Positions 1-32,858 of a DNA stretch of 64,000 nucleotides are shown in pieces (within the stretch, counting starts at the first letter, position 1; every line of letters begins with the position of its first letter). Under the pieces are notes generated by a model, which searched no databases, had not been told where the DNA came from, and saw only the letters and a list, made by a program, of their open reading frames with translations. The stretch lies in assembly GCA_016125375.1 (NCBI GenBank), contig WGLU01000007.1, forward strand, positions 68,499 to 132,498. The letters run 5' to 3'. This stretch comes from Pseudomonadota bacterium. Its GTDB lineage: Bacteria; Pseudomonadota; Alphaproteobacteria; UBA1280; RI-95. The position numbers and the translations under genes were made by a program.

Positions 1-344
1 GTCTATATCCTTAACACGTTCTCAACTTAAGCTCTGGCAGAGGTGCGGACCATCCGCGCCTCAGGATGCGGTTTTTTCAACGTGACGGCAAAACCATAAG
101 GCCTGCCGTACCGCAGAGGTGTTTTTTAAGCGTTGGCGGGGTGTGCGTCAAGGGGAAAAATAACCAATGGAAGGGACCGTGTGCATTTTAATGGTAAAAT
201 ATTGCATACAACCCTTTGACATCGGCCCGCCGCATACCTAACCTTACATAAAGTACAAAGCTGTCTTCGGGCAGTTCCTATCTCCTGTATCTTTTCTTCT
301 CCTTGTGTTTTTCCCTGTTTTTCTTCTTTCGAAGAGGAATCAAC

Positions 345-2027: not shown

Positions 2028-2038
2028 CCAAGCGACAG

Positions 2039-2071
2039 GAAGCCCCCCCTCACCGGGGGGCTTCTTTTTTT
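2039..2071 (+). terminator. Rho-independent terminator (GAAGCCCCCC-loop-GGGGGGCTTC followed by T7)
   Basis: A 10-bp GC stem directly after stop codon 2025-2027, followed by a run of seven T. Confidence 0.8.
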
Positions 2072-2172
2072 GTTTTACAATAAGGGGGCGGTGGGCCTAC
2101 ACTCACAGAAATACCATCCTTTTGCTTTTCCCTTTTTGTATCTTCCCGCTTCTCTCTTCAGGAGAGGTCATC

Positions 2173-3324
2173 ATGATCATGAAAATCCTCCGCGCCCTGT
2201 ACGGGGTGTTCTGCGTCGTCCGCGACGTGTCGTTCGCGCTCGGCCTCATCGTCCTCGTCGCCTTCGGCTACCTGTTCGTCGACGAGCTGGGCAAGCTGCC
2301 CATCGACATGCCGGAAGCCGCCCGTGCCTACCCGGAAACGGCCGCGCCCGTGAAGATTCCGTTCAAGCTCGACCCGGCCGAAAGCACGGCGCTCGCCGGC
2401 CTGACCGATGCCCAGCGCACCGAGCGTATGCTGCGCTCCACCATCATGGTGGTGACCGGCGAACGCGCGCTTGGCTCCGGCGTCATCATCGACAACAAGG
2501 CCTGCTACGCGGTGACCAACGAGCACGTCATCGGCATCCCCGGTGACATCAAGGTCTCGTACATCACCCGCTTCCGTGAAGACGGCAGCGCCATCACCAA
2601 GACCGTCGACGCCGAGATTATGGGCATTCCGAGCAAGGACAACGACCTTGCCCTGCTCAAGCTCTCCGGCTGCGAAGGCACGTTCTGGGCGCCGATCGGC
2701 GACTCCGACGTCCTGCGTCACGGCGATCTGGTGACGGCCATCGGCCATCCGAAGGGCCAGTTCTGGACCCTGACGGAAGGCGTGGTCAGCCAGCCGCGCC
2801 GCAAGATGGAAGGCTACACCGACTCTTCCGGTTGGGAGATGATTCAGGTGGACGCCGCCATCAACAGCGGTAACTCCGGCGGTCCGCTCTTCACGCGTGG
2901 TGGTGCCCTCATCGGCATCAACTCCATGAAGCGCACCGACGGCGAGAACCTCGGCTACGCGCGTCCGGCCAATCTGGTCGAGACGTACCTGGTCTACCTG
3001 TCGCACTACGGTGCCATGCCAAAGATCCTGCTCGGCGTCGAGGTCAGCCAGATGGATGACGAGATGGCCGCCACCAATGGCGTGCCTGCGTCCTACATCA
3101 AGGCCGGCGACTTCGGCCTGCTGATCAAGACCGTCATGCCCGACGGCAAGGCGGCCAGCATTGGCCTGAAGGCCGACGACGTGCTGCTCGCCGTCAACGG
3201 CGACGGCGTGTACGACGTGCACCAGTTCAAGCGTCTGCTGTACCGGCACACGCCCCATGGCGCCATGAAGCTGACCATCATCCGTGACGGCCAGCTCCAG
3301 ACCGTGACCGTGTCCGGCAACTAA
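2173..3324 (+). CDS. Membrane-anchored HtrA/DegP-family (S1C) serine protease with PDZ domain (paralog 2)
   Basis: ORF 1882..3324 trimmed to MIMKIL at 2173 (SD ggagagg upstream). The upstream extension is Arg/Ser-rich and non-genic. The N-terminal TM helix is ALGLIVLVAFGYLFV. Catalytic context: His in AVTNEHV, Asp in DNDLALLKL, Ser in GNSGGPLFT. The PDZ-like C-terminus is clearly paralogous to 345..2027 (shared CEGT.WAPIG, LVTAIG motifs). Confidence 0.8.
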   Translation: MIMKILRALYGVFCVVRDVSFALGLIVLVAFGYLFVDELGKLPIDMPEAARAYPETAAPVKIPFKLDPAESTALAGLTDAQRTERMLRSTIMVVTGERALGSGVIIDNKACYAVTNEHVIGIPGDIKVSYITRFREDGSAITKTVDAEIMGIPSKDNDLALLKLSGCEGTFWAPIGDSDVLRHGDLVTAIGHPKGQFWTLTEGVVSQPRRKMEGYTDSSGWEMIQVDAAINSGNSGGPLFTRGGALIGINSMKRTDGENLGYARPANLVETYLVYLSHYGAMPKILLGVEVSQMDDEMAATNGVPASYIKAGDFGLLIKTVMPDGKAASIGLKADDVLLAVNGDGVYDVHQFKRLLYRHTPHGAMKLTIIRDGQLQTVTVSGN

Positions 3325-13677: not shown

Positions 13678-14376
13678 ATGAGTGTTGTTACACTGCCTAT
13701 CGTGGAAAAGCACGACAAAATACGTCGATCGGCTGCCATTGCTACCCAATTGAAAGAGATGATTCTGGACGGTGTCCTTAAAGCAGGCGACCGTTTGCCG
13801 ACCGAGGAACAGTTGTGCCGCCACTTCGGCGTGTCACGCACCACACTGCGGGAATCTGTACAAATGCTGCGTGTTTCAGGCCTGCTGGAGGTTACTCCGG
13901 GCCGTGGCAGCTTTGTAAGGGTGCCTGACCTGCGCAAGATTATGGACGACGTTGCCGTATTCGGCTGCGCCGGTGGTATGGATGATGCCGAAGTCCAGAA
14001 CCTGATTGCCCTGCTGCAACACGAAATGGTGCGCCGTGCCTGCCGCGCACCTGCCGTTCGCAAAAGCAGCCTGACGGATTACCCGATCAGCCGATTGGCA
14101 CCGGTATCCGAGAACGAACGCGCCGAGCGTGCCTGGCTGCTGGCGATTGCTTCGGTCTCCGGTTACAAGGTTGGCCGTATGCTGCTGGAAGTGCTGTTGA
14201 CCATGACCCGCCGTCAGCGCCAACTGCGCCTGGCAAAAGCGGGTGAGGTACAGCGCCTGATGGAAGTGCAACTGCGCCTGAACGCCGCAATTATTGACGG
14301 TAACGCCGATATGGCCGGGCGGGTGATGGAAGCGTATCTGCAAAGCTGCAAGGATGGTACAACACTGAGTGCCTAG
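13678..14376 (+). CDS. GntR-family transcriptional regulator (FadR/FCD subfamily)
   Basis: N-terminal winged HTH: LPTEEQLCRHFGVSRTTLRESVQMLRVSGLLEVTPGRGSFV. All-helical C-terminal FCD-like domain. The ORF track start at 13585 is a GTG; the ATG at 13678 was chosen. Confidence 0.8.
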   Translation: MSVVTLPIVEKHDKIRRSAAIATQLKEMILDGVLKAGDRLPTEEQLCRHFGVSRTTLRESVQMLRVSGLLEVTPGRGSFVRVPDLRKIMDDVAVFGCAGGMDDAEVQNLIALLQHEMVRRACRAPAVRKSSLTDYPISRLAPVSENERAERAWLLAIASVSGYKVGRMLLEVLLTMTRRQRQLRLAKAGEVQRLMEVQLRLNAAIIDGNADMAGRVMEAYLQSCKDGTTLSA

Positions 14377-14921
14377 GCCTGTGCTGCCTCGTCCTTGAGG
14401 TACTGTTTAAGGACCCGGTAGGCGTCGTTGATCCTTTTGATCTTGTCGGCGCTTTCCGGGTCTTTATTGCGGTCGGGGTGATGCTCTTTGGCCAATTTAT
14501 GATAAACCTTGCGCACCTTGGCACTGTTCAGTGGCGGTGTAACACCCAGTTCTGCACAGGCGTCGCGCACATCGGGTGGCAGGTTGCTCGTTTCCGGCTT
14601 GGCTTCGGCAGGTTTGTGGTGCAGCTCCTCAAAAAAGCCGTATGGGTCCTCCGTGGCGCCAAAAGCTGCGGTCGCACCGACAAAAGACTTTGTGCCCAGT
14701 CCCATTTTCCATGTCGGACGGTTCCACGTCGCACCCCCATGCTGCATGGAGAAGATCTCCTGCGAGGAGAAACCGTTCAGCCCGTTCCAACGGGAATTGA
14801 ACTCCTTGATGTGTTTCAAGCAGTAGAATTGACGGTCATAAATATTGCGCGGGTCCCGCGGGGCAGGGTATTCACCTGGCTCCGTACATTCGGGATGTGC
14901 GCAGGGATGCACATCTGTCAT
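14373..14921 (-). CDS. J-domain protein with C-terminal DnaJ domain and N-terminal Cys/His-rich segment
   Basis: C-terminus KVRKVYHKLAKEHHPDRNKD...INDAYRVLK carries the HPD tripeptide of J domains. The N-terminus has CAHPEC...C..H. The start lies 4 nt after the prepilin peptidase stop. Confidence 0.7.
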   Translation of the reverse strand: MTDVHPCAHPECTEPGEYPAPRDPRNIYDRQFYCLKHIKEFNSRWNGLNGFSSQEIFSMQHGGATWNRPTWKMGLGTKSFVGATAAFGATEDPYGFFEELHHKPAEAKPETSNLPPDVRDACAELGVTPPLNSAKVRKVYHKLAKEHHPDRNKDPESADKIKRINDAYRVLKQYLKDEAAQA

Positions 14922-14924
14922 GCC

Positions 14925-15554
14925 CTACCATATAGACTGATAAAGCCGCAGAAACAAGAGTTGAACACCATCGGGGTAGAGTGCCATAAGCCAAATGGCG
15001 AGGCCCAATGCGGGACCGTAGGGGGTGTTGCCATCCTTTTGTGCGAAGGCGGCAAGGCCAAAACCGAAAAAAGCCGCCAGCGTAAGGGCCGGGAAAAAGC
15101 CGCCCAAGCCAGCCCATACGCCAAGTGCAGCCAGCATTTTAATATCCCCACCGCCAATATGCTCGGTGATGGTATCACCTTTGAGCTTAGCCACCACAAA
15201 AGAAACACTGAAACCAAAACACAGGCCAAGTGCGCCACCGGCAAAAGGGTCATACCAGTCGCCGTGGTTGGTGAACGTGAATGGGCTGAGCAGGCCCAGT
15301 AGCAGAATGGGGAAAGTATAAATATCCAGCAGCAGGAAATGGCTCAGGTCAATAGCCATGGTCCGTGCCAGCAGTGCAGCGAGCAGCGTGATATAAACAA
15401 TCGAGACGATGTTGAGTTCAGGAAGCCTGGGTGCGGCCATCGCGAGCAGTACAAGGAACAGTGCAACTGTACAAAGTGCGCGAAAACGCTGCGGCACACG
15501 CCCGTCAAGGGGATGTGCCGCAGCAATATGGCGCGCCTCAAACGACCGGAGCAT
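14925..15554 (-). CDS. Prepilin peptidase (A24 family, short TadV/CpaA-like form without N-terminal zinc-finger or methyltransferase extension)
   Basis: The second catalytic-Asp motif IGGGDIKMLAALGVWAG matches A24 GGGDVKLL. The first Asp lies in AIDLSHFLLLD. Polytopic membrane protein, 209 aa. Confidence 0.75.
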   Translation of the reverse strand: MLRSFEARHIAAAHPLDGRVPQRFRALCTVALFLVLLAMAAPRLPELNIVSIVYITLLAALLARTMAIDLSHFLLLDIYTFPILLLGLLSPFTFTNHGDWYDPFAGGALGLCFGFSVSFVVAKLKGDTITEHIGGGDIKMLAALGVWAGLGGFFPALTLAAFFGFGLAAFAQKDGNTPYGPALGLAIWLMALYPDGVQLLFLRLYQSIW

Positions 15555-15562
15555 GCCCGGGC

Positions 15563-16651
15563 TTAGCCGCAGGTCGCGGGGTTGGTCGGCGTGGTGCAGA
15601 ACTCAATGCTGGTCGTAAACGGCGCCTGACCAACGTTGGTTACGTTCGAGTTGTAGCGCAATCGGCGGTTCCATGGGTCAACTGCGTAGGTACGCGGCAG
15701 ACTCAGCAGCTCCATCAGGGCTTCCATGCTGTTCGTTGCCGATGCGGCGGCACCCACATCGTATGTCGCCTGAACACCCAAGCTGGCTGCTGTACGCAGG
15801 TCCGGCACGTAGTAAACGTCCAGGTTCTGGTTTTCCAGGCTGGAACGCGGGTAGTAGTTGGCGCGGCCTTCCTCGCCGATATCGTAGGTGTTATCGTCGG
15901 CCCGGCTGCTGCTGTTAATGTAGTTCGGGTTGGCCTGGTTGACGTCTTGCACATCCATCCAGTCGCAGCGGTCGTCGTTCGCCGGGTCCTGAGCCGCGTT
16001 GCCCGCCATGAACAGGGCCAGTTTGTTTGAGCAGTAGTTCTGGTTTTCTGTAAACAGGCGTGCCTCATAGGCAGAGAGGGCTTTGGTAATTTCCTCGCCC
16101 TGGCGGCGGAACACTTTTACACGGGACTTCTCGATGTCCAGGGTGGAGAATTTGCGGCCAATATCGTCATTGGCGGGTTGCCAGGCACCGTAGTCGGCAG
16201 CACAGGAACCGTTCGTCAGGAAGTCGCCTGTGCCAGAGTCGTTTGTGCCATCTTTACCGGGTGAATAAATGGCAAAGTACTGAACGGAGGGTACGACAAT
16301 ACCGTCGATGCTGACGTTGGTCTCGGTGCAGGTGTCGTAGACCCAGGCAGAACCCCAGGCATCAGCATTCAGGGTCTGGTTTTCTACCAGACCTGTATCA
16401 AAAACGAGCGTCTGGACGTTTGCCCACGAAGTGGGGACAGTTGTGATGCCTGTGGATATGTAATAGGTCTCGATACCTTTTGTAATCAGCTCTGCGGCAA
16501 CATCGGTGTTTTCCACTTTTGTGCGTTCGATACGCGACATTTGCATGCCGCCGAGCGAAACCGCCAGAATACTGGCGACAACCAGCGCAATACGCGCATC
16601 CATACTGAACATGGCGCCGTGCTGGTTACGAAGAATGTTGGTCGTTCTCAT
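15563..16651 (-). CDS. Large pilin-like protein (362 aa) with prepilin-type leader MRTTNILRNQHG/AMFSMDARIALVVASILAV and N/T/Y/D-rich C-terminal domain ending in a Cys pair
   Basis: The leader and hydrophobic helix parallel the 22935..23546 pilin (shared G-AMFxxDAR[IV]AL). C-terminal ...CTTPTNPATCG is disulfide-loop-like. The start was taken at the Met at 16651 (GGGGG SD 10 nt upstream), not the ORF-track start at 16702. Confidence 0.55.
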   Translation of the reverse strand: MRTTNILRNQHGAMFSMDARIALVVASILAVSLGGMQMSRIERTKVENTDVAAELITKGIETYYISTGITTVPTSWANVQTLVFDTGLVENQTLNADAWGSAWVYDTCTETNVSIDGIVVPSVQYFAIYSPGKDGTNDSGTGDFLTNGSCAADYGAWQPANDDIGRKFSTLDIEKSRVKVFRRQGEEITKALSAYEARLFTENQNYCSNKLALFMAGNAAQDPANDDRCDWMDVQDVNQANPNYINSSSRADDNTYDIGEEGRANYYPRSSLENQNLDVYYVPDLRTAASLGVQATYDVGAAASATNSMEALMELLSLPRTYAVDPWNRRLRYNSNVTNVGQAPFTTSIEFCTTPTNPATCG

Positions 16652-16701
16652 GGTGTTAATACCCCCGTATCTTACCATTTTGTTGTGCGTGCCCCGTGTC
16701 A

Positions 16702-17487
16702 TTACTTCGCACCCGCAGCTGCCGAGGCTTCGCGCATATCAATAATATCTGTATAGGTTTCTGACCACGGTGCCGGTGTTGTAAATGATATTGTGGCTGT
16801 TTGGGATGTTGCGCGGGCATAGGTAAAGTTATTGCCCCAGAAGTCCCGTTGCGTGTACACGTCCCGGATATCCGTATTGAACGTGCCGTTTGTCGGCAGG
16901 TGGTGCGTGCCGGACTCCGCCGTACCATCTACCATGGCGCGGCGCCACCAGTCGTAAACAAAGTCCGTCAGGGCAGCCATGTTACCCTTGGAAATTTCAA
17001 GCTGGCGGGCCCGTATGACCGATGTGTCGATAACAGCGACATCGTCGCGTTTGGTAATATCGCTCGTGAGCATGTTGGCATCTGTAGATGTAGAGGCATC
17101 TGCGCGGATAAATGCATCGTCAGAGTTGGAAATCATGACCCGTTGGCGACCTGTCGCGTTATCCATCGCTGTAGAGTTGATGACGATGGCCTGACCGTTG
17201 CGCGTGTCCAGACTTGCAGAGGTGGAATTGCGGATACGGGTTGCATCAATGCCATTATTGAAGTTGGCTGCTGTTTCCATGAGCAGAGCGTTTTCTACAC
17301 CGTCTTTAAGCTCTTGCAGCTGTTTCTTTTTGGCTTCGGCCTGCTGGGCCTCGATTTTGGCCAGTTCGCGTTCGGCCTGTTTGCGCATCGCAGTGGAGAA
17401 AACAGCCAGACCAAGCACCAAACCGATCATGAACGGGGAAAAGTTACCCCGTTGGCATTTGAGCGATTTGGCAATCCTTGCCAGCAT
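16702..17487 (-). CDS. Pseudopilin/minor-pilin-like protein (261 aa), leader MLARIAKSLKCQRG/NFSPFMIGLVLGLAVFSTAM followed by coiled-coil
   Basis: The leader ends in Q-R-G like the other two pilin-like genes. A 20-residue hydrophobic helix is followed by a Lys/Glu-rich helix, then a Ser/Thr/Asn-rich domain. Confidence 0.5.
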   Translation of the reverse strand: MLARIAKSLKCQRGNFSPFMIGLVLGLAVFSTAMRKQAERELAKIEAQQAEAKKKQLQELKDGVENALLMETAANFNNGIDATRIRNSTSASLDTRNGQAIVINSTAMDNATGRQRVMISNSDDAFIRADASTSTDANMLTSDITKRDDVAVIDTSVIRARQLEISKGNMAALTDFVYDWWRRAMVDGTAESGTHHLPTNGTFNTDIRDVYTQRDFWGNNFTYARATSQTATISFTTPAPWSETYTDIIDMREASAAAGAK

Positions 17488-17496
17488 AGCCGTACG

Positions 17497-18294
17497 TCAT
17501 ACCCCCATACGCAGTTCGTAATCGCGACCTGCAACTGACACCACAACAGCGCGGTGCTTAATTTCCTTTACTGTCACACTAATATTATAGCGGCCGTCAT
17601 TAGTTTTTGACTTACGTAGCTGGTCTTTCTTCTCGCGGTACTCGCGCAGGGCCTCGTCCCGGTATTCCTGATATTGCTGGTAGGCGGTTTCGGATACGCT
17701 GTCCGGTTCCGGCATCTGGGCATAGATGGTTTCTTCGACCTTGTCGGTGCTATCGAGCTTGACGTTTACAGGCAGCAGGAAACGGTCACCCGGAGAGAAC
17801 TTCTTGTTGTTAATCATCACATAAGGCGAGGGGGCTGCGATAACCGATTGCAGGACAATACGGCCAAGGTCTTTGGTAAAGTCATAATCGCTGAAATCGA
17901 ACACCTGACCTTCATGCGCCGTATTGATGATGGTGTGCAGGTAATTACGGAATTCATCCAGGTTCAACTGGTCAGAAGCGGTCAGGTCCGGTAACTGCGG
18001 CAGGTTGATATTAATTTGCTCTGCAGGGGCCTCCTGCTGTTCTTTTTCCGTTGCAAACGGATCAATAAGGCCGCGTTGCAGCAAGGATGTAATGGTTGGC
18101 AGCAGGTCGGCACCCTCTTTCGCACGGCCGCGGCCCGCGCGCTTTTGCACCTGCATTTCCTGAATCAGATTGTCGCGTTTAAAGTCAAATTCGGGCTGAC
18201 CACGGAACGTTATCGGCCACTGCTGCGCCAAAGCAGACGTAGCGGCAAACGCAACCAGAACAAACGCAAAAAGTGGTAGCTTAACTTGGTGCAT
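17497..18294 (-). CDS. Secreted/periplasmic operon protein of unknown family (signal peptide MHQVKLPLFAFVLVAFAATSALAQQ)
   Basis: Cleavable Sec-type signal. The Glu/Gln-rich mature protein sits in the middle of the pilus-like operon. The start was chosen at the Met at 18294. Confidence 0.5.
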   Translation of the reverse strand: MHQVKLPLFAFVLVAFAATSALAQQWPITFRGQPEFDFKRDNLIQEMQVQKRAGRGRAKEGADLLPTITSLLQRGLIDPFATEKEQQEAPAEQININLPQLPDLTASDQLNLDEFRNYLHTIINTAHEGQVFDFSDYDFTKDLGRIVLQSVIAAPSPYVMINNKKFSPGDRFLLPVNVKLDSTDKVEETIYAQMPEPDSVSETAYQQYQEYRDEALREYREKKDQLRKSKTNDGRYNISVTVKEIKHRAVVVSVAGRDYELRMGV

Positions 18295-18796
18295 TGACGG
18301 TCTCCGGGTTGTACACATAAACAAAGCCTTTAATCTGAATCATGCGCTGGTTGGGCTCAGGCTCGGCACCGGAGGGAAGGGACAGGCAGCCGAAGCACGC
18401 ACTGAAAAGCACAAAGCCGTTCATGTTCTCCAGTTTGTTCACCAGGCGCAGGCCGGTCACAAAGTCTGTCAGGCCCGTAATCTCGAAGTTGTGGCGGTAG
18501 AAAAAGCGGTTGTCCTGAGAGTTTGGGTCCGCTTCGCTGGTATATTTGAACTCAACGTTTTTGGGCAGCTCAATTGCACGTTCAATGTTCAGCTTCTGGT
18601 CTTCGCCTTTTTTAAGGGTGACTTCCTTGATGGCTTCAATTTTTTTGGCAAACTTTCCGGCTTCCTGCTTGTCGCGGATTGCCTGAGCCAGCTGATTACG
18701 CTGAACTTTGATGCCGTTAAGATTTTCCATGAACTGGAACCCGCCAACAATAAGGGCAAAGGCGGAGAGAATCAGACCAATCGTGAACTGAATCAT
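18281..18796 (-). CDS. N-terminally membrane-anchored operon protein (GspM/PilO-like topology, 171 aa)
   Basis: A single N-terminal TM helix (IQFTIGLILSAFALIVGGF) is followed by a coiled-coil and a beta-rich C-terminus. The topology resembles assembly-platform components. There is no sequence-family match. Confidence 0.45.
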   Translation of the reverse strand: MIQFTIGLILSAFALIVGGFQFMENLNGIKVQRNQLAQAIRDKQEAGKFAKKIEAIKEVTLKKGEDQKLNIERAIELPKNVEFKYTSEADPNSQDNRFFYRHNFEITGLTDFVTGLRLVNKLENMNGFVLFSACFGCLSLPSGAEPEPNQRMIQIKGFVYVYNPETVNAPS

Positions 18797-19941
18797 TTTT
18801 GTTCTCCTTCCTCTTTAGGCTCTGCCTTGGCGGCCTGGCCGGGTTTCATGGTTTCGTTAATCATGCGCTGTTCCTGGGTATGCTTGCGAATTTGTTCGTC
18901 CAGCGTGCTCAGCACAACCAGCCCTTCCAATGTCAGGTCTTCGCGGTTGACAGGGGGTTTACGGATTTCCGCCATGGTCACACTCTGCTTCAGCAGTTCT
19001 TTCGCTATCGGTTCCTGTTCCAGATAGCTCTTGTAGGCTTTCGGCATAGAGGTAATGGTGACCAGCGCAATATCACTTGGCTGGTTTGGTGTGGGGTTTT
19101 CTACTTTAAAGTCGTGCACTTTAAAGTCAGCATTATGCACGGCCATCGCGATATCTTTCAGCACGGTAGAGTACAGATAGCGGTAGCGCATAAACTGTTC
19201 CTGCTCCTGCACACGGCTGATAATCTGGCGGAAGTTGTCGCCAAAGCCGCTTTCCTGTCGGGCAATGGCGACCTGACGGCGGAGGTTGATGACCTCCTGC
19301 TCCTGATCTGTGGTCAGGTAGTACATACCCCCAGCAATGCCCATGCCGATCAAAAGAACATGGAAACCATACCGCTCCTGAATGGTGGGTTTGTTCAACC
19401 ACATGTTCGTATCGAGGGGGACAGACTCCAGTGGCTCAAAAGTAGCATCCAGTTCGGATGTTTTCTCGTTCTTCCAGTTTGTGTAAACCGTTTTCTTGGT
19501 TGTTTTTGGGTACGCCTTGAAAACCTGCTGCAGGTCTTTAACCCATGTTTCTTCAGAGGTGGGCTGGATATAACTGTCGTTAATGTCCCAGTGGAAGATA
19601 ACGTCGGCAGCAATCATGGCATTCAGAGTGTTCGGCGGTGTTTTGCTGGCGCGACAAAAGTCAAACAACGCAATATTCCGCCCATGGTGCATGAGCAGCA
19701 TCTGGTCTTCTTCATGGTCTGTGGGGCTTAAGGCGGCGGCAGGGTCAACATCCGCACCGTCAATATCGCGCGGTGCAAAAAAGCCGAGCATCAGGTTGCG
19801 GCGGCTTTGATCGTCTGTCAGGTCTTTCCAGTTGTCGGCAAACAGCACCTCACCGTTTTCAGGGTAGTACTCTACGCGGTTCAAGCCCACAAAGCAGCGG
19901 TTCTTGAAGCGGGTAATGTTGACTTTTGGTGCTGTAGCCAT
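18793..19941 (-). CDS. Bitopic operon protein (382 aa) with ~190-aa cytoplasmic domain, one central TM helix and periplasmic domain (GspL/PilM-N-like architecture)
   Basis: The central hydrophobic segment HVLLIGMGIAGGMYYLTT splits two soluble domains. It lies immediately downstream of the GspF-like gene, as GspL does in T2SS operons. Confidence 0.45.
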   Translation of the reverse strand: MATAPKVNITRFKNRCFVGLNRVEYYPENGEVLFADNWKDLTDDQSRRNLMLGFFAPRDIDGADVDPAAALSPTDHEEDQMLLMHHGRNIALFDFCRASKTPPNTLNAMIAADVIFHWDINDSYIQPTSEETWVKDLQQVFKAYPKTTKKTVYTNWKNEKTSELDATFEPLESVPLDTNMWLNKPTIQERYGFHVLLIGMGIAGGMYYLTTDQEQEVINLRRQVAIARQESGFGDNFRQIISRVQEQEQFMRYRYLYSTVLKDIAMAVHNADFKVHDFKVENPTPNQPSDIALVTITSMPKAYKSYLEQEPIAKELLKQSVTMAEIRKPPVNREDLTLEGLVVLSTLDEQIRKHTQEQRMINETMKPGQAAKAEPKEEGEQK

Positions 19942-19950
19942 GGGTTGTCC

Positions 19951-21048
19951 CTAGTTTTGCGCAAACACAATTGAAAGCATTTCCATCAACATGACGGCAC
20001 CGCCGGCAATCCAGAGGAAGGCTGAAGTGACGCCAACGAATCTGCTGTTGGCATCCGTCAGAAGGCGGTCAAGAATGGTGTAGGCGTGGTCCATGCCCTC
20101 CACCATCACGTCGTTGATGCCGTCCGTGTTACCGGCATAGTTCTCGGACACTTTTACAGGTGTCACGGCAATAGGCGGGAAGCCGGCCTTGTCCATTGCA
20201 TCAGACATTTGCCCACCGGCAGTAATCACCTGGTTGAACATGTCAATCCGTCGGCGGAGCACAACGTTGGTGGCTAACGCTTCCATAATCGGAATCATCT
20301 GCTTCGGTTTTACACCGCTTCGGATAAGGTGCGGAAAGTACAGCAACATGTTTGTATAAACTTTGTAGGAGGTGTACTTGCCAAGCAGGGGCACTTTCAG
20401 CAGGTAAAAGTCCAGCCAAAAGCGCCCTTGTGTGGTGCGGATCATGGAGTAGGACACAATAATAAAAATGACAAGGAAAGCGGCAATAAAGTGCCAGTGC
20501 GCAGCTACGCCGTGGGTAAAGTTCATCACGAACTCTGACACCATGTTCGGGTCCTTGCCCTGTGCCTTACGCATCTGCATCAGGTTGGGCAGGGTGTTCA
20601 GACCTGTGTTGAAAATAGACGCAAACGACAGCAGCAGCATGGCAATAGGCGTGAAAAGCTCGGCAAAGCCTGCCCGTTGCGATTCCATTTTCTTATCTTC
20701 CAGCTTACGCAGAACCGAGAAGGCCTCGTACATGTTGTTGGAGGCCTCGCCAGCCATAATCGCGGCACGGTGAATGTCGGTAAACAGGATGTATTCGATC
20801 TCGGCGGCCTTGCTCAGGCTTTTGCCTTGCGCCACCTTCTGGGCGATAGCCAGGAGGCCGGAAGAAATATCGTCTTTGCCTTCGGTTTTGAAGGCTTTTG
20901 CAACGGCACGCAGACCGGACTCCGAGGTCTGGCCCGACCGGAGCATCTGTGCCATAAGGAAGAACAGCCTTTCCCGGTCCGCCATGGAAACATCGCGGAC
21001 TTTGGGCCCAAGGCCGCTACTCCCGGTGAATATTTTCGAGATCTGCAC
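19951..21048 (-). CDS. Type II secretion / type IV pilus inner-membrane platform protein (GspF/PilC family)
   Basis: 365 aa with three TM helices. It has two repeated T2SSF cytoplasmic domains (LRSGQTSESGLRAVAKAF..., LIRSGVKPKQMIPIMEALATNV...). Confidence 0.85.
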   Translation of the reverse strand: MQISKIFTGSSGLGPKVRDVSMADRERLFFLMAQMLRSGQTSESGLRAVAKAFKTEGKDDISSGLLAIAQKVAQGKSLSKAAEIEYILFTDIHRAAIMAGEASNNMYEAFSVLRKLEDKKMESQRAGFAELFTPIAMLLLSFASIFNTGLNTLPNLMQMRKAQGKDPNMVSEFVMNFTHGVAAHWHFIAAFLVIFIIVSYSMIRTTQGRFWLDFYLLKVPLLGKYTSYKVYTNMLLYFPHLIRSGVKPKQMIPIMEALATNVVLRRRIDMFNQVITAGGQMSDAMDKAGFPPIAVTPVKVSENYAGNTDGINDVMVEGMDHAYTILDRLLTDANSRFVGVTSAFLWIAGGAVMLMEMLSIVFAQN

Positions 21049-22732
21049 TGAAGAAACGCTCCAGTTCTTCTACACTTGTGATACCACTTTTGACGTGGCG
21101 CAAACCGTTACCCAGCATATCGACCATACTGCCGCTGTTGAGTGCCTGTTCACGTACCACATCAATCCAGTCCGGGCGCAGTCGGTTGCCCGACCAAACG
21201 TTCCGGGTTACTTCCTTCCGCCACAGCTCCAGCACTTCCTCCAGCGCGATACGTCCAATGTATCCGCGGTAGTGGCAGTGCTCGCAGCCGTTGTGGTTCT
21301 GTTTGTAAATGACGTCGCCTTCGGCGAACTTGACGATTTTGGGGCGTACTGCCTTCATGCCTTCGGCGAACTGTCCGTGCAGTTCAATCGGCACCTTGCA
21401 TTTGGGGCACAGGCGACGGACCAGACGCTGCGCGACAATACCACGCACGTTGGAGAAGATCTGTTCTGCGGGCACGCCCCGCTGCAGCAGACGGTCAAGA
21501 CACATGAACGTATCGTTGGCGTGCAGGGTTGTAATAACAAGGTGACCAAGGTTACCGGCGTCGATACAACGGCGGGTATCCTCGGGGCTACGCACCTCAC
21601 CGATGTACAGCACATCGGGGTCCAGACCCAGTGCGGCATACATGAAGGATTCAAGGTTCAGACCTGCACTCAGGTCCTCTTCGGTCTGGATAACGTTATC
21701 CATCCGTTCCTCGATCTGTTTCTCGTAAGAAATCACGTTCTGGCCGGGACGCTGACCGCGACGGATGGTCATACGGGCGGCGGTTGATTTACCCGCACCG
21801 GTCGGGCCGCAGAAGATGATACACCCTTCCTCGAACTTCATCAGCTGGTCGAGCTTTTTAAAGGTTTGCTCGCTGTAGCCGAAATCCTCCAGCTTGCCTT
21901 CAAACGGGCGCATGTAACGCATGGCCAGTTTGGCGGTTCCTTCCAGAGAGATAGGCTGCGTCGTGTAACGAATGTCCACACGTTCACGGCTTGAAATCTC
22001 GAACGTCATACGGCCGTAGAGAGGCTTTTTATAGTTCTCTGCACGTACACCGGCAATGTGGCGCAGACGGCCGAGGACGCGTTCGTACACCTCGATCGGC
22101 AGGGCAACCAGTTCTTCCAGTTCGCCGTCAAATCGGGCCATAACTGTGGGTTTACGGTTCAGGATCTCGATGTGCAAGTCGGATGCGCCGTTTTTGTAGG
22201 CGGTACGGATAATCTCGTCCGTGAGCGAGATGATGGCATCGTCGTTACCGGCGTTAATCTGTGCATAAGCGTTTTCCACAAGGAACTTGAGGGAGTGACC
22301 CTCGCGTTTGCTCATCCGTTCGATGGCGTCTTCGATAGATTTGGCCGGTGCCCAGATGAACTCGTGCTTGTTTTTGCGGTTACGCAGCACGATTTCGCTC
22401 ACCAGGCGTTTGTTCGGCAAGTCGGCAGCAACCCATGTCACCGTGCCGCGGCCCAGCTCGATAGGGCAGGCGGTGTAGTGGAGCATAAACTCCCGGGTGA
22501 TGCCTTCAATCTGGTGGGGGGTGATTTTACCCATCTCGGCAGCGGATTTAACCGGAAAATCATAGGCGATGGCGCGGTAGCGGGACTGTTGTGCCTCGGT
22601 CAACTTACCGGATTTACCAAGTGCTTCGATAAGCGCATCCGGGTTTTTCTGCACAGTAACAGGGAGCGACTGCAAGTCGCTGATGGTGACCACCTGATCA
22701 CTAATCATCAGGTCAACAATATCCATCCCCAT
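21017..22732 (-). CDS. Type II secretion / type IV pilus assembly ATPase (GspE/PilB family, with tetracysteine zinc motif)
   Basis: N-terminal T2SSE_N-like region, ASDLHIE, Walker A FCGPTGAGKST, Asp box GEVRSPED, His box TTLHAN, and CPKC...CEHC zinc site. It overlaps the GspF start by 32 nt. Confidence 0.9.
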   Translation of the reverse strand: MGMDIVDLMISDQVVTISDLQSLPVTVQKNPDALIEALGKSGKLTEAQQSRYRAIAYDFPVKSAAEMGKITPHQIEGITREFMLHYTACPIELGRGTVTWVAADLPNKRLVSEIVLRNRKNKHEFIWAPAKSIEDAIERMSKREGHSLKFLVENAYAQINAGNDDAIISLTDEIIRTAYKNGASDLHIEILNRKPTVMARFDGELEELVALPIEVYERVLGRLRHIAGVRAENYKKPLYGRMTFEISSRERVDIRYTTQPISLEGTAKLAMRYMRPFEGKLEDFGYSEQTFKKLDQLMKFEEGCIIFCGPTGAGKSTAARMTIRRGQRPGQNVISYEKQIEERMDNVIQTEEDLSAGLNLESFMYAALGLDPDVLYIGEVRSPEDTRRCIDAGNLGHLVITTLHANDTFMCLDRLLQRGVPAEQIFSNVRGIVAQRLVRRLCPKCKVPIELHGQFAEGMKAVRPKIVKFAEGDVIYKQNHNGCEHCHYRGYIGRIALEEVLELWRKEVTRNVWSGNRLRPDWIDVVREQALNSGSMVDMLGNGLRHVKSGITSVEELERFFSADLENIHRE

Positions 22733-22934
22733 GTCCTCCTGCGGCGCCCGTCTTATTACGTTGTTTTGCGCCCCCGATAAACCGCTTTATCAAACGTGCC
22801 TAAAGGTTTGTATTTTTTATCCTAACACAGCTTATCGGCGGGCTGTAACCCTTTTTCAAATCGCAAAACACAAGGCCACTGCCGGCGTACCGGCAGTGGC
22901 CTGGTTTGTAACGTCAGGCTGTTGCCAATACGTC

Positions 22935-23546
22935 TTAGCTACGTGTACGCGACAGCAGGTAAGCAACTGTCTCGTTGTCACCTGGCGAGCAGGTGCTGTC
23001 GTAACGGAAGTTACCGGTGTTACCAGTGCCGCCGGTACCATCGATTTTCTTCTCCAAATCGCCAGCAATCTCGCACGGTACGGACGACAAGGTCAGCCAC
23101 TTGCCGCTGATACCGGCAGAGGTGTTGATGGCGGACGGTGTCCAGTTGGCATCAATACGACCGTCACGCAGGGCGAACACGCCGTAGCCGGCAGTGTGCG
23201 TGTTGGTGGCGATTGTAATGTAGGGCCCGTTCCAGTTCAGGGTGCTGTTTGCGTCAGCATACAGGTTCTGGAAGCCCACACCGGTACCGGTGGTGTTCGG
23301 GGCGGTGGAACTGGTGTCTTGCGGCACGTCCACACCCGTGTCGAACACGAAGTTGATGTAGCCTTTGGAAATGTTGTCAAACTCGGTCAGTACGCCGGTA
23401 ACCCGGGTATCACGAACCGCCGAGAACACAGCCACACCGGCAATCGCCGAGAGGCCTGCGAAAATGGCCAGAGCCACACGGGCGTCCAGACCAAACATCG
23501 CGCCGCGCTGTGAGCGCAGCTCTTGAGATACGTTCTTCATAAACAT
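22935..23546 (-). CDS. Major pilin-like protein (first gene of the operon), leader MFMKNVSQELRSQRG/AMFGLDARVALAIFAGLSAIAGV, Gly/Thr/Asn-rich globular domain with C-terminal Cys pair
   Basis: Class-III-signal-like organisation: a charged leader ending in G, then a ~21-aa hydrophobic helix. Two Cys near the C-terminus (VPCE...DSTCSPG). The AAGGAG SD favours the start at 23546. Confidence 0.6.
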   Translation of the reverse strand: MFMKNVSQELRSQRGAMFGLDARVALAIFAGLSAIAGVAVFSAVRDTRVTGVLTEFDNISKGYINFVFDTGVDVPQDTSSTAPNTTGTGVGFQNLYADANSTLNWNGPYITIATNTHTAGYGVFALRDGRIDANWTPSAINTSAGISGKWLTLSSVPCEIAGDLEKKIDGTGGTGNTGNFRYDSTCSPGDNETVAYLLSRTRS

Positions 23547-23719
23547 GGTCATGCTCCTTACATCGGACCGTTATTCTGGGCCTGTTGAGTCAGGCTTAAT
23601 ATTTTTTTCTAGGTATTCCCCATACCACTACTTTATAGCAAGGGTTGCAAGTCAAGCAGCTGAACGTGGCTGACAGGACAAATATATCCGAACACCTGTT
23701 GCCTTTTTGCAATAATAAC

Positions 23720-23746
23720 ATAAAAAACCCGCCGAAGCGGGTTTTC
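23720..23746 (-). terminator. Rho-independent terminator of the cytochrome c gene (AAAACCCGC-CGAA-GCGGGTTTT + T-run on minus strand)
   Basis: A 9-bp stem 22 nt downstream of the stop at 23768. The A6 run at 23722-23727 supplies the T-tail on the minus strand. Confidence 0.75.
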
Positions 23747-23767
23747 ATTATCTCAAGGCAGGGAGCC

Positions 23768-24313
23768 TTAGTCTTTCAGCGTTTTCAGGTACGCGATGAT
23801 GTGGGCACGCTCTTCCGGCTTGCGGATAGACAGCGACATTTTGGTGCCTGGCATATAGTCTTTCGGGCTGGCCAGGAACTCAAAAATCATCTCGGGCTTC
23901 CAAGTTTCGCCAGCTTCGTGTTTCTTGGCGAAAGATGCTGTGTACGAGAAGTCATCGCGGTGTGCAACCTTGGAACCAACAACACCCCACAGGTTAGGAC
24001 CGGTTTTGTTAGGGCCGCCTTTTTCAAAGGTGTGGCAGGCTTTGCATTTGTTGGCGATTTTGGCGCCAATGGCAGGGTCGCCGGCAACCAGCAGGGCGTC
24101 AACATCAACGGGTTTATCGTCATGCTTTGCGGCAGCGCCTTCGCCGGCTTCGGCAGTTTCAGGTGCAAGTGCGGCCAGCACAGGATTCATTTCGGCCTTA
24201 CCGTGCTCGGGCAGCAGGTGGCCGGTCGTGGCAAAATGGCCGGAGAAATAAACAATTGCAAACAGGTCCGCGGCCAGCACGGTCACAATAAACACACGCA
24301 TGAGGTTTTTCAT
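23768..24313 (-). CDS. Membrane-anchored mono-haem cytochrome c (CycM-like)
   Basis: CKACH haem-binding motif and N-terminal TM anchor (LMRVFIVTVLAADLFAIVYF). Start at MKNLMRV (24313) with a GGGGG SD. Confidence 0.8.
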   Translation of the reverse strand: MKNLMRVFIVTVLAADLFAIVYFSGHFATTGHLLPEHGKAEMNPVLAALAPETAEAGEGAAAKHDDKPVDVDALLVAGDPAIGAKIANKCKACHTFEKGGPNKTGPNLWGVVGSKVAHRDDFSYTASFAKKHEAGETWKPEMIFEFLASPKDYMPGTKMSLSIRKPEERAHIIAYLKTLKD

Positions 24314-24448: not shown

Positions 24449-25282
24449 ATGAAGAACGCGCCAACGCACATCATCATGGGAAGAATTGTCGGCCTCGCTG
24501 CGGGGTTGTTTATGTTCGCCGACCTTGTTCCCGCCGTTTTATGCATTATTGTCGGGCTGGCGTGTGACATTCTGTATGCCAGATATATTTTCCCGCTGCG
24601 TTACCGGGACATCCTTCTGCAGGATTACAGTGTGGCCGTGATCGAGCTGTGCGCAAAAATGTGCAAGTCTGACGGTGTGGTGACAAAGGAAGAAATAGAA
24701 GCCTTCCGGCGCAGGCTGATGATTGATGCGCAGGACATGACCATCGTGTCGGCCATTTTTAACAAAGCCAAAAAGAGTGCCCTGGGTTTTGAGGTGCAGG
24801 CGGCAAAAATCCACAGCATTTTACGGACGAGTCCGCAGCAGTTGCTGGCGATCATCGAAGTGCTGTACGAGATTGCCCTTTCGGACAATTTTGTGGCCCC
24901 GGGTGAGCGTAACTTTATCATCAAAGTGGGGCAGGTGTTTGGCTTGACGCCGCTGCAACTGAACGAGATAGAACGCCGCCTTGCTGTTGGCGCCCGCCAG
25001 ACCTCGGAAGGGGCGCGCAATTATGAGCAGTCGTTCGAGCAGGAAGAGGGGAACAACCCGTACCAGAAGTCGGCCATCAGCGGTAAGGACCCCCTCAAGA
25101 TTCTGGGCGTGAAAGACGGTGCCAGCAAGGAAGAGGTAAAGCGTGCGTACCGTAAGCTGGTCGCCAAATACCACCCGGATAAGGTCCGCGGCGATGGTGC
25201 CAGCCAGAAAGAGATCGACCGCGCGGAAGAGAAAATGACCGAGCTGAATGCCGCCTATGCGGCGTTAATGAAGCGCCTGTAG
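24449..25282 (+). CDS. djlA: Co-chaperone DjlA-like protein (N-terminal TM, TerB-like middle domain, C-terminal J domain)
   Basis: The TM helix at the N-terminus and the C-terminal ILGVKDGASKEEVKRAYRKLVAKYHPDK... (HPD) match the DjlA architecture. Confidence 0.7.
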   Translation: MKNAPTHIIMGRIVGLAAGLFMFADLVPAVLCIIVGLACDILYARYIFPLRYRDILLQDYSVAVIELCAKMCKSDGVVTKEEIEAFRRRLMIDAQDMTIVSAIFNKAKKSALGFEVQAAKIHSILRTSPQQLLAIIEVLYEIALSDNFVAPGERNFIIKVGQVFGLTPLQLNEIERRLAVGARQTSEGARNYEQSFEQEEGNNPYQKSAISGKDPLKILGVKDGASKEEVKRAYRKLVAKYHPDKVRGDGASQKEIDRAEEKMTELNAAYAALMKRL

Positions 25283-31208: not shown

Positions 31209-32858
31209 ATGCAAAACCCCGTCGACAAAAAGCCCGCCGATAATCGCAATCTGATGATTGCGCTGCTGCTTTCCGCGCTGGTTCTGGTCGGATACGACTA
31301 CCTGCGCCTGCGGTTCAGCCCGCCTGCGGAACAAACGCAGGAAACGGTCCAGCAGGCCCCTGCGGCAGCCGCCCCCGGTGCCCCGACATTGAACGGAGAT
31401 TTGTCTGCGGTATCGTCGCTGAGCGCCACGCCTGCGGGCGATGTGCCGCACATCGGCATCAAAAGCAGCACCTTTGAAGGCACGTTGAGCCTGAAGGGCG
31501 GCCGTATCGACAGCCTGAAGCTACCCGATTACAAGGTATCGCTGAAAGACCAGACGCCGGTAACCATGTTCACCACCACAGGCGAACGTGTGGAGTTTTT
31601 TGAAGCCGGTTGGCTGAGTGATGTAACAGCTGCCCCGAACAGCGACACAGTATGGTCGGCAGGGGAGTCGGATGTTCTGAACAGCCTGACACCGGATACC
31701 CCCGTGACACTGACATGGGATAACGGCAAAGGGCAGGTGTTCCAGCGCAGCTACATACTGGATGCTGGCAGCCACACCATCCGCATCATCGACGGCGTAA
31801 CCAACCAGGCCGAACATCCCGTGCGCCTTGCCCACTATGCCCAGCTGCACCGCGCCGGGTACAACAAGCGCGAGAGCACATTCTATAATTTCAATGGGTT
31901 GCAGGCATTTTTTGACAGCAAGCACCTGACCCACAGCTACGAAGACATTGCCAAAAAAGGCCCCTTCCGCGAGAGTGGTCGTCAGGGCTGGGTAGGCGTG
32001 AGCGACCCGTACTTCCTGTCGGCGCTTCTGCCGGACCAGACCAATACGCAAACAGCGGTGTTCCGGAATACCAAAACTGCTGGTGCCGATTTCTACACCC
32101 TCGACCTGCAAGGCCCTGCTGTTGTGGTGGAGCCGGGCCAGTATGTGGAAAATGCCTACCGTCTGTACGTCGGGCCGAAAAAGTTTAGCTTCCTGTCCGC
32201 TGAGAAGGTGGGTCTGGATCAGGTTATCGACTACGGTTGGTACCACATCATCGCCAAGATGTTCTTTGACGCCCTCAAGGGCCTGCACAGTGTTGTGGGT
32301 AACTGGGGTGTGTCCATTATCATCATGACCTTTATCCTGAAACTGGTCATGTTCCCGCTGGCGACCAAGAGCTACCGCTCCATGAGCGAGATGAAAAAGC
32401 TCCAGCCGAAAATGGAACAGCTGCGCGAGCGCTATGGCGAAGACCGCGAGAAACTGGCGCAGGAAATGATGGCTCTGTACCGTCATCACCGCATCAACCC
32501 CATGAGCGGGTGCTGGCCGATGCTGATCCAGATTCCGATTTTCTTTGCCTTCTACAAGGTGATTCTCATCTCGTTCGAGTTCCGTCAGGCGCCGTTTGTG
32601 GGCTGGATTCATGACTTGTCAGTATCTGACCCGTACTTTGTACTGCCGATTCTGATGGGTCTGACCATGATTGTGCAGCAGCGCCTCAACCCGCCTGCCG
32701 CCGACCCCGTACAGCAGAAGGTGCTGCAATTCATGCCGGTGATGTTCACCTTCATGTTCCTGTGGTTCCCGGCTGGTCTGGTACTGTACTGGACGACCAA
32801 CAGCATCCTGTCGGTCAGCCAGCAGTGGTGGATTATGCGCCGGATGGGTGTGAAGTAA
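31209..32858 (+). CDS. yidC: Membrane protein insertase YidC
   Basis: N-terminal TM, large periplasmic domain and 5-TM core with MFPLATKSYRSMSEMKKLQPKM...NPMSGCWPMLIQIPIFFAFY. Confidence 0.95.
   Translation: MQNPVDKKPADNRNLMIALLLSALVLVGYDYLRLRFSPPAEQTQETVQQAPAAAAPGAPTLNGDLSAVSSLSATPAGDVPHIGIKSSTFEGTLSLKGGRIDSLKLPDYKVSLKDQTPVTMFTTTGERVEFFEAGWLSDVTAAPNSDTVWSAGESDVLNSLTPDTPVTLTWDNGKGQVFQRSYILDAGSHTIRIIDGVTNQAEHPVRLAHYAQLHRAGYNKRESTFYNFNGLQAFFDSKHLTHSYEDIAKKGPFRESGRQGWVGVSDPYFLSALLPDQTNTQTAVFRNTKTAGADFYTLDLQGPAVVVEPGQYVENAYRLYVGPKKFSFLSAEKVGLDQVIDYGWYHIIAKMFFDALKGLHSVVGNWGVSIIIMTFILKLVMFPLATKSYRSMSEMKKLQPKMEQLRERYGEDREKLAQEMMALYRHHRINPMSGCWPMLIQIPIFFAFYKVILISFEFRQAPFVGWIHDLSVSDPYFVLPILMGLTMIVQQRLNPPAADPVQQKVLQFMPVMFTFMFLWFPAGLVLYWTTNSILSVSQQWWIMRRMGVK

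Follow-up and report, generated by a model that had tools for sequence, protein, structure and literature searches.

A gene cluster of uncultured Alphaproteobacteria that probably encodes an inner-membrane assembly machine of an unclassified type IV filament subtype

The 64,000 nucleotides analysed here (positions 68,499 to 132,498 of contig WGLU01000007.1, assembly GCA_016125375.1; hereafter the 64-kb window, or the window) carry ten co-directional open reading frames (ORFs) on the minus strand between positions 14373 and 23552. Among their products are three proteins resembling pilins, an ATPase of the PilB/GspE type, a platform of the GspF type and three accessory proteins; a short A24 prepilin peptidase and a protein with a J domain complete the set. 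The cluster probably specifies a complete inner-membrane assembly machine of a lineage-specific, unclassified subtype of the superfamily of type IV filaments (TFF), working by the mechanism proposed below and lying on the side of type II secretion systems (T2SS), mannose-sensitive haemagglutinin (MSH) pili and type IVa pili (T4aP) rather than on the Tad/archaeal side. As to the product of the machine, the evidence leans towards a surface pilus without a dedicated retraction ATPase. An earlier note on this DNA described ten co-directional minus-strand genes forming a secretin-less filament operon, and an ORF check of the window recovered all ten at the positions given there. Their products are numbered p1 to p10 in the direction of transcription (a slash in a leader sequence marks the predicted cleavage site):

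22935-23546, minus strand: p1, putative major pilin of 203 aa, leader MFMKNVSQELRSQRG/AMFGLDARVAL, the motif being kept in orthologues
22873-22902, minus strand: intrinsic terminator hairpin between the pilin and ATPase genes, with a 13-bp stem, 10 G-C pairs and a T-rich tail
21017-22732, minus strand: p2, assembly ATPase of the PilB/GspE type, bearing an MshEN-type domain at its N terminus and a tetracysteine site (Pfam, motifs)
19951-21048, minus strand: p3, GspF/PilC-type inner-membrane platform (Pfam T2SSF, hhalign)
18793-19941, minus strand: p4, GspL-like bitopic protein of 382 aa (AlphaFold2 model)
18281-18796, minus strand: p5, N-anchored periplasmic protein, putative GspM/PilO analogue (position and topology)
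17497-18294, minus strand: p6, secreted periplasmic protein with a C-terminal GspC/GspB/PilP-type homology region (HR) domain split by a helical insertion (model, Pfam)
16702-17487, minus strand: p7, minor pilin, leader ...CQRG/NFSPFMIGL, lacking an acidic residue near its N terminus (motif kept in 11 loci)
15563-16651, minus strand: p8, large (362 aa) two-lobed pseudopilin, leader MRTTNILRNQHG/AMFSMDARIAL, with two DPWG-type motifs (alignment, hhalign)
14925-15554, minus strand: p9, short A24 prepilin peptidase lacking an N-terminal methyltransferase domain (Pfam, hhalign)
14373-14921, minus strand: p10, J-domain protein with an N-terminal CCCH zinc knuckle and a C-terminal HPD J domain (Pfam DnaJ, E 3e-13)

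The two motor components are the most readily recognised. The ATPase p2 matches Pfam T2SSE (PF00437, E 8.5e-67) and MshEN (1.2e-5), and it carries a Walker A motif (GPTGAGKST at 309), a His box (GHLVITTLH at 396) and the cysteine pairs CPKC at 442 and CEHC at 483. Its best NCBIfam match is full-length PilB (TIGR02538; 232.8 bits, cut-off 675.65), followed by GspE (219.6 bits, cut-off 630.25) and TfpB (215.7 bits), all below their cut-offs; the ComGA model gave 152.6 bits (cut-off 300) and the TadA-family model 24.2 bits (cut-off 373). The platform p3 matches Pfam T2SSF (E 2.7e-14) and E. coli GspF (hhalign, 94.5% over 269 columns), with 82.7 bits over residues 18-360 for the NCBIfam GspF model (cut-off 424) and 40 bits for ComGB (cut-off 240). 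Judged by sequence, the proteins of the cluster fall short of the orthology cut-offs of PilB, GspE, GspF, ComGA/GB and TadA, and belong to the TFF superfamily by their ATPase, platform and peptidase.

All three pilin-like ORFs begin with a conserved leader that ends in Gly and is followed by a hydrophobic helix. The leaders of p1 and p8 follow the consensus Q-[RKH]-G/A-M-F-[GS]-[LM]-D-A-R-[IV]-A-L and that of p7 the consensus Q-R-G/x-F-S-P-F-M-F-G, in which there is no acidic residue; a regular-expression search of the window for the canonical N-methyl (G[FM]TLIE) and Flp (G....EY) motifs returned none. Profile comparison with hhalign links the p1 family to the p8 family (98.9% over 102 columns), p7 to p1 (90%) and to p8 (78%), and the p8 family to E. 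coli GspG (91.5%, E 8.5e-7, 109 columns covering the leader and the DPWGN motif). When orthologues were scanned singly, Pfam T2SSG was matched by 14 of 15 for p8 (best E 1.2e-5) and by two of eight for p1 (best E 1.5e-4), and p7 conserves a C-terminal [RK]D.WG..F.Y ... FTTPW motif of the GspG type. Against E. coli GspH, GspI, GspJ and GspK, the p1, p7 and p8 families reached at most 19% probability by hhalign. The leaders, the hhalign links and the T2SSG matches uphold the earlier pilin-like calls and point to GspG-related proteins. The predicted mature p1 protein has 188 aa, with a W-x-GPY motif and a C-terminal Cys pair; Cys pairs are present in members of the p1 family. The minor pilins of the cluster are two only, and p7 is a candidate for the tip or cap: according to Pelicic (PMC10191384), the subunit that caps a tip complex lacks Glu5, and p7, having no acidic residue near its N terminus, would fit that role. 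The peptidase p9 matches Pfam Peptidase_A24 (PF01478, E 1.2e-9) and has both parts of the catalytic Asp pair (D69 and GGGD137) conserved; about 55 residues stand ahead of the peptidase domain, and the hhalign match to GspO (96.8%) extends only over GspO residues 91-214.

Two of the accessory proteins, p4 and p6, have been recovered mainly through structure. The AlphaFold2 model of p4 (predicted local distance difference test score 86) consists of an N-terminal alpha/beta domain, a long helix forming the transmembrane (TM) and coiled-coil segment, and a C-terminal ferredoxin-like domain. On this model, p4 would combine a cytoplasmic actin-like (ASKHA) domain with a periplasmic PilO/GspL-type ferredoxin-like domain, bearing out the GspL-like architecture that had been proposed for the 382-aa protein, and none of the 36 homologues scanned has a Pfam match. 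The p6 protein has a cleavable AxA/Q signal peptide and neither a TM anchor nor a PDZ domain. Its model, which is confident over residues 100-265 only, places a helical insertion within the HR domain; two structure-search methods (including Foldseek) and family-level Pfam agree on that domain, with T2SSB matched by 10 of 14 orthologues (best E 7.6e-6). In p5, a conserved N-terminal TM segment is followed by a helix and then by a beta-alpha-beta-beta region with an invariant CxxC; position and topology make it a putative counterpart of GspM/PilO, and hhalign revealed no relationship to the C-terminal half of p4 or to p6. Profiles of the p4, p6, p8, p1 and p5 families searched against PDB sequences yielded nothing significant and only weak GspG and GspB traces. 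When families were compared by hhalign with single E. coli GspA-O and HofM-Q proteins, p3, p8 and p9 alone were matched, with no match for p1, p4, p5, p6 or p7. GspL-like and HR-domain parts can diverge past recognition by sequence while still being recoverable by structure.

In Neisseria, PilD, PilE, PilF and PilG together with PilM, PilN, PilO and PilP are reported to be sufficient for filament assembly (PMC10191384). This eight-protein set is matched by p9, p1, p2, p3, p4 (PilM and PilN together), p5 (PilO, by position only) and p6 (PilP), and because these equivalents are present we read the cluster as a complete inner-membrane machine for fibre assembly. In the mechanism we propose, p9 would remove the leader without N-methylation, and hexamers of p2, held at the membrane by p4, would turn p3 and so lift pilins out of the inner membrane. 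In the periplasm p4 would pair with p5, acting as the GspM/PilO analogue, while p7 and p8 would prime or cap the fibre and p1 would supply its bulk subunit. The HR domain of p6 would couple the inner-membrane complex to a secretin of the outer membrane whose gene lies elsewhere in the genome. HR domains bind the secretin N0 domain in T2SS, in OutB and in T4aP (PMC3169554, PMC9239104, PMC3441751), and the TFF reference models treat gspD as a possible 'loner' (PMC6668835). In all systems studied the HR domain docks on a secretin, and gspD genes are known to occur unlinked, which makes a secretin encoded elsewhere more likely than a truly secretin-less machine.

A pilus is favoured as the product because the p1 gene is separate and bounded by a terminator, because p1 is duplicated in two related loci (L001 and L003), and because of the size and Cys pairs of p1; the same preference follows from full-length PilB being the best ATPase match and from two minor pilins standing in place of a GspH/I/J/K set. 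The p1 and ATPase genes are separated by about 200 nt, which hold the strong hairpin terminator at 22873-22902, so p1 would form its own transcription unit ahead of a nine-gene operon. A terminator after the pilin gene is the usual route by which the major pilin transcript reaches a level far above that of the machinery. The single ten-gene run from one promoter that the earlier note envisaged consequently holds for the tightly spaced p2 to p10 genes and not for p1. Its promoter region, put at ~23.55-23.7 kb, found no support: this is an intergenic stretch downstream of the cytochrome c terminator in which a consensus scan detected no sigma-70-type promoter. Nor is the pilin-first order as unusual as had been thought, a separate leading pilin gene being not unusual for pili.

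From the platform gene to the J-protein gene, junctions range between a 14-nt overlap and a 9-nt gap. Between the ATPase and platform genes there is an overlap of 32 nt, which becomes a gap of 31 nt with the NCBI call for the platform gene, 21 codons shorter than the longest ORF. The probable true starts are 23546 for p1 (203 aa; the spacing of the ribosome-binding site favours this ATG), 18294 for p6 (265 aa, a call identical to NCBI protein GC134_08890) and 16651 for p8 (362 aa); the ATPase ORF has 571 aa, and the gene call of the sequence collection begins two codons later. The public record of 14925-21048 corresponds to MBI1364085-MBI1364091, and the NCBI annotation pipeline labels six of the ten products (p3, p4, p6, p7, p8 and p9) as 'hypothetical protein'.

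The cluster belongs to an isolated clade. About 80 relatives of the ATPase are 66-94% identical to it and the next match is at ~31%; the clade is absent from cultured genomes, its named members all being uncultured alphaproteobacterial or 'proteobacterial' metagenome-assembled genomes. One member, UBA12223, has been placed in the GTDB order UBA1280 (PMC11142082), on which we found almost nothing published. It is the sole taxonomic anchor for the lineage, for which nothing points to Micavibrionales or Rickettsiales. The earlier note had suggested looking for recurrence of its ten-gene synteny; the order ATPase, platform, p4, p5, p6, pilins, peptidase, J-domain protein recurs across the whole clade, in 22 related loci including the most divergent (66-67% ATPase identity), which argues that the cluster is not a chance assembly. 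Flanking synteny and the boundaries of the cluster are kept in L002-L005 and L025, and the cluster is, on these comparisons, vertically inherited. Relative to the window proteins, identity is 67-79% for the ATPase, 51-66% for the platform and 23-46% for the accessory proteins and pilins (up to 52% for p1), and neighbouring housekeeping proteins (YidC, ProC and Lgt) are 39-56% identical when compared with the same genomes, with YidC at ~50%. An ATPase more conserved than its housekeeping neighbours implies that the motor is under unusually strong constraint by purifying selection.

The pilin complement and the surroundings vary within the clade. Genes of the p1 type lie upstream of the ATPase gene in the subclade of the window only and are sometimes duplicated in tandem (L001 1620-3086; L003 7933-9296); these duplicates agree wholly or almost wholly over their N-terminal 45 residues and diverge in their globular parts, a pattern resembling that of variable surface pilins. 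In L001 and L024 there are three large pilins of the DAR type (310-423 aa) and the p7 type is missing, and in L025 p7 is enlarged and a gene has been inserted. Most of L008-L020 have no small p1-type gene in the 10 kb upstream of the ATPase, the large p8 being their sole DAR-type pilin. Within 5-10 kb of the cluster lie rpmH, rnpA, yidD and yidC (window 31209-32858; L002 4100-6800; L024 19800-21700; L025 3200-5900), a recurrent neighbourhood suggestive of a place in the chromosome that was fixed long ago. In the most divergent subclade (L001 1-9700; L024 2300-9100), the cluster adjoins the flagellar genes fliP, flgE and flgD and a fliK-like hook-length gene.

Several points weigh against the interpretation given here. 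The secretin, which it places elsewhere in the genome, was not found in the 64-kb window or within 10 kb on either side of the 22 related loci, at most about 84 kb of each genome having been inspected; no locus annotated with Pfam shows one within that distance. It is the HR domain, by itself, that points to such a secretin, and in canonical systems the secretin gene adjoins that for the HR-domain protein (gspC-gspD, pilP-pilQ). The p5 protein has no sequence match in Pfam, the PDB, E. coli GspM, HofN or HofO, or PilO. The pilin leaders differ from the canon, Asp+6 and Arg+8 replacing Glu+5, and their cleavage site is a predicted one. A p1-type pilin is absent within 10 kb in half of the related loci. 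Finally, a T2SS-like function is equally compatible with the absence of PilT and with the presence of a GspL-type fusion, an HR protein and GspG-like pilins.

The earlier description of the system as secretin-less stands to the extent that there is no secretin in or near the cluster; it is not established that the machine itself is secretin-less, given that gspD can be a loner. The absence of a secretin, GspC, PilT and TadZ in or beside the cluster was likewise confirmed for the 64-kb window, which holds no GspC-type TM/PDZ protein, PilT or TadZ. In tblastn searches of the window and 20 loci, E. coli GspD, HofQ, GspC, GspL, GspM and HofM-P returned nothing below E 0.2. There is no second T2SSE-family ATPase, platform or peptidase in the window, no second ATPase in the flanks of the loci, and none of the Tad Pfam families among the genes flanking the cluster. 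Genes in the window for an O-antigen ligase, for Lgt and for a YidC that has a periplasmic domain mark the host as a diderm. A machine that functions in such a cell with no secretin at all, its fibre acting in the periplasm as a piston or scaffold or leaving by a non-secretin exit and the HR domain of p6 being retargeted to a novel partner, seems to us unlikely. It would account for the want of an adjoining secretin even in the most divergent loci, gspC-gspD and pilP-pilQ being adjacent pairs in canonical systems, as well as for accessory proteins that are unrecognisable by sequence and for a p6 that is soluble with an HR insertion, unlike GspC (TM and PDZ) or PilP (a lipoprotein). Yet all HR-domain proteins characterised to date have the N0 domain of a secretin as their partner (PMC3169554, PMC9239104, PMC3441751), filaments that assemble when no secretin is present stay trapped in the periplasm (PMC10191384), and unlinked secretin genes are known, the portion inspected being at most about 84 kb per genome.

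The more serious alternative, though still a tentative one, is a highly divergent T2SS: p8, p7 and p1 would build a short pseudopilus, which would drive folded proteins out through an unlinked secretin of the GspD type. Shared features are a zinc-site ATPase of the GspE/PilB class, a platform of the GspF type with two domains, a fused protein of the GspL type, a protein with an HR domain as in GspC/GspB, pseudopilin domains of the GspG type with DPWG motifs and no retraction ATPase, with the NCBIfam GspF and GspE models among the best matches. However, GspE (219.6 against 630 bits) and GspF (82.7 against 424) scores lie far below the equivalog cut-offs, homologues of GspH, GspI, GspJ and GspK were not found in the cluster, and neither gspD nor a TM/PDZ GspC is present in or near it. 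Whereas GspC is bitopic with an HR domain plus a PDZ domain or coiled coil, p6 is soluble, has no TM segment, PDZ domain or coiled coil, and carries an insertion in its HR domain. There is no methyltransferase domain in the peptidase, and Asp+6/Arg+8 rather than Glu+5 mark the pilins. The major pilin is also pilus-like, with a separate, terminator-bounded upstream gene that is sometimes duplicated, a 188-aa mature protein and a Cys pair. Moreover, an L-like fusion combined with the absence of PilT is not confined to T2SS, being found likewise in MSH pili, a point of general background.

Comparison with the pilus systems gives a similarly mixed picture. With T4aP the cluster shares an ATPase for which full-length PilB, including the MshEN-type domain, is the best match, putative equivalents of PilM and PilN (fused), PilO and PilP, a separate terminator-bounded pilin gene and pilin Cys pairs. 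It differs in the PilM/PilN fusion itself, in that PilQ, PilT and PilU were not found in the window or flanks, in its short monofunctional peptidase, in lacking the N-methyl-Phe/Glu5 signature, and in gathering the machine genes in one operon where T4aP genes are scattered. Likeness to MSH pili, the MSH side of which is drawn from general background, extends to the MshEN-type N-domain of the ATPase, an L-like PilM/N fusion (MshI), the lack of a retraction ATPase and the clustering of several pilin genes; in a comparison made without MSH profiles, MshL, MshM and MshN were not found in the cluster, which has no AAA-type MshM-like gene, and both its pilin signal and its peptidase are different.

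Tad systems are common in Alphaproteobacteria. The cluster resembles them in having a short peptidase without a methyltransferase domain, as in TadV/CpaA, and a small residue (Ala) at +1; in contrast, its ATPase is of the PilB/GspE type with an N-domain and zinc site, its platform is a single two-domain protein rather than TadB plus TadC, its pilins are large and GspG-like rather than 50-aa Flp proteins with G/XXXXEY, and TadZ, RcpA and TadD were not found. The cut-offs of ComGA and ComGB are missed, and Com hosts have a single membrane, unlike the present host with its O-antigen ligase, Lgt and Gram-negative-type YidC. With the orthology cut-offs missed and, within the cluster, the component sets of T2SS, T4aP, Tad, MSH and Com incomplete, the cluster fits none of the canonical Gsp, Pil, Tad and Com layouts, as had been claimed. 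Under the scheme of Denise et al. 2019 it would be called a 'generic' TFF, since an ATPase, a platform and a pilin are present and no specific model's quorum is reached; unlike other generic systems, such as the chlamydial T2SS without GspLM and minor pilins, it has accessory functions, whose divergence puts them out of reach of sequence profiles. No relevant account of such a system, or of T4P in Micavibrio, emerged from literature searches.

The cluster might be a fragment of an ordinary gsp or pil locus with gspC/gspD or pilMNOPQ just outside, the outcome that the earlier note named as its own refutation. The ATPase, platform and peptidase bear a general resemblance to their canonical counterparts, and there is nothing more in favour of this view. 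The downstream flank contains GntR, proC, an epimerase, lgt and a methyltransferase, and the upstream flank a cytochrome c, a TerB-DnaJ protein, an NMT1-family protein, a DUF547 protein and a pyridine-nucleotide disulphide oxidoreductase (lipoamide dehydrogenase-like). The remaining large ORFs of the window are all housekeeping, among them those for HtrA, UvrB, YidC, a class II aminoacyl-tRNA synthetase, PepA, PPDK, the O-antigen ligase, a glycosyltransferase, AsnB, ClpB and an M23 peptidase. With housekeeping flanks on both sides, with boundaries shared by L002-L005 and L025 and with the L, M and HR functions already within the cluster, we regard this view as refuted by gene content, and its probability as negligible. 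Very improbable, too, is a decaying remnant or a recent mobile island, such as pilus genes borne by a plasmid, an integrative and conjugative element or a phage. The cluster is poorer in GC than its flanks (51-55% against 58-62%), as an island might be, but its catalytic motifs are all intact, its ATPase is more conserved across the clade than housekeeping neighbours, its chromosomal position is kept in several loci and no integrase or transfer genes occur nearby. In a search of 72,556 plasmids, there was no p4 homologue and the best ATPase match was only 28% identical. The lower GC holds over most of the cluster within 16000-24000 of the window, and GC at third codon positions in the cluster genes (0.58-0.68) is below that of many housekeeping genes of the window (up to 0.90).

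The place of the J-domain protein is less certain than that of the other products. The start of the p10 gene lies 3-4 nt past the peptidase gene, both in the window (3 nt) and in 14 of 16 related loci with enough sequence; in the other two, L010 and L016, it is absent together with the peptidase. Residues C7, C12, C34 and H37 are invariant. The family of its N-domain, typically of ~200-aa proteins, comprises 1043 clusters at 50% identity, which makes it some tenfold wider than the clade of the cluster, and includes a J-domain protein of the cultured Rhodospirillales species Caenispirillum salinarum. The width of this family makes p10 a general J-protein of Alphaproteobacteria, co-transcribed in this cluster. 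Participation in the machine, for example by bringing DnaK to the peptidase or pilins, is possible though unsupported, and we have set aside p10 as a dedicated component as unproven. Inclusion of a J-domain gene in the operon, as originally described, stands; its part in the machine is doubtful because the family is far wider than the cluster. A second, different J-protein (TerB plus DnaJ, DjlA-like; 24449-25282, plus strand) lies upstream of the cluster past the cytochrome c gene, so that two J-proteins bracket the cluster; the TerB-DnaJ neighbourhood is kept in L002-L005 and L025.

Other features of the window are a tandem pair of HtrA/DegP-type serine proteases, each with a trypsin-like and a PDZ domain (303-3324, plus strand), an ORF matching Pfam Mito_fiss_Elm1 at E 7e-82, of the bacterial ELM1-like family (52621-53670, plus strand), and a fusion of protoglobin with a methyl-accepting chemotaxis signalling domain, a haem-based aerotaxis-type sensor (55669-56748, plus strand).

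The overall results describe an ATPase and platform lineage that is isolated and restricted to uncultured Alphaproteobacteria, the order UBA1280 among them. The cluster is an unclassified relative of the known type IV pili and T2SS machines rather than a new kind of machine. The reference census of TFF systems concluded that few new families are left to find in sequenced phyla (PMC6668835), and the cluster looks like one of those few remaining. Its pilins provide a natural variant of the N terminus, with Asp+6 and Arg+8 and a peptidase without a methylation domain, which may be useful for testing the role of the Glu5 salt bridge. Should it prove true that the genomes of the clade lack any secretin, the importance of the system would rise sharply. 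Given that its constraint exceeds that of neighbouring housekeeping genes, the cluster probably underlies a key trait of the lineage, be it adhesion, uptake or secretion.

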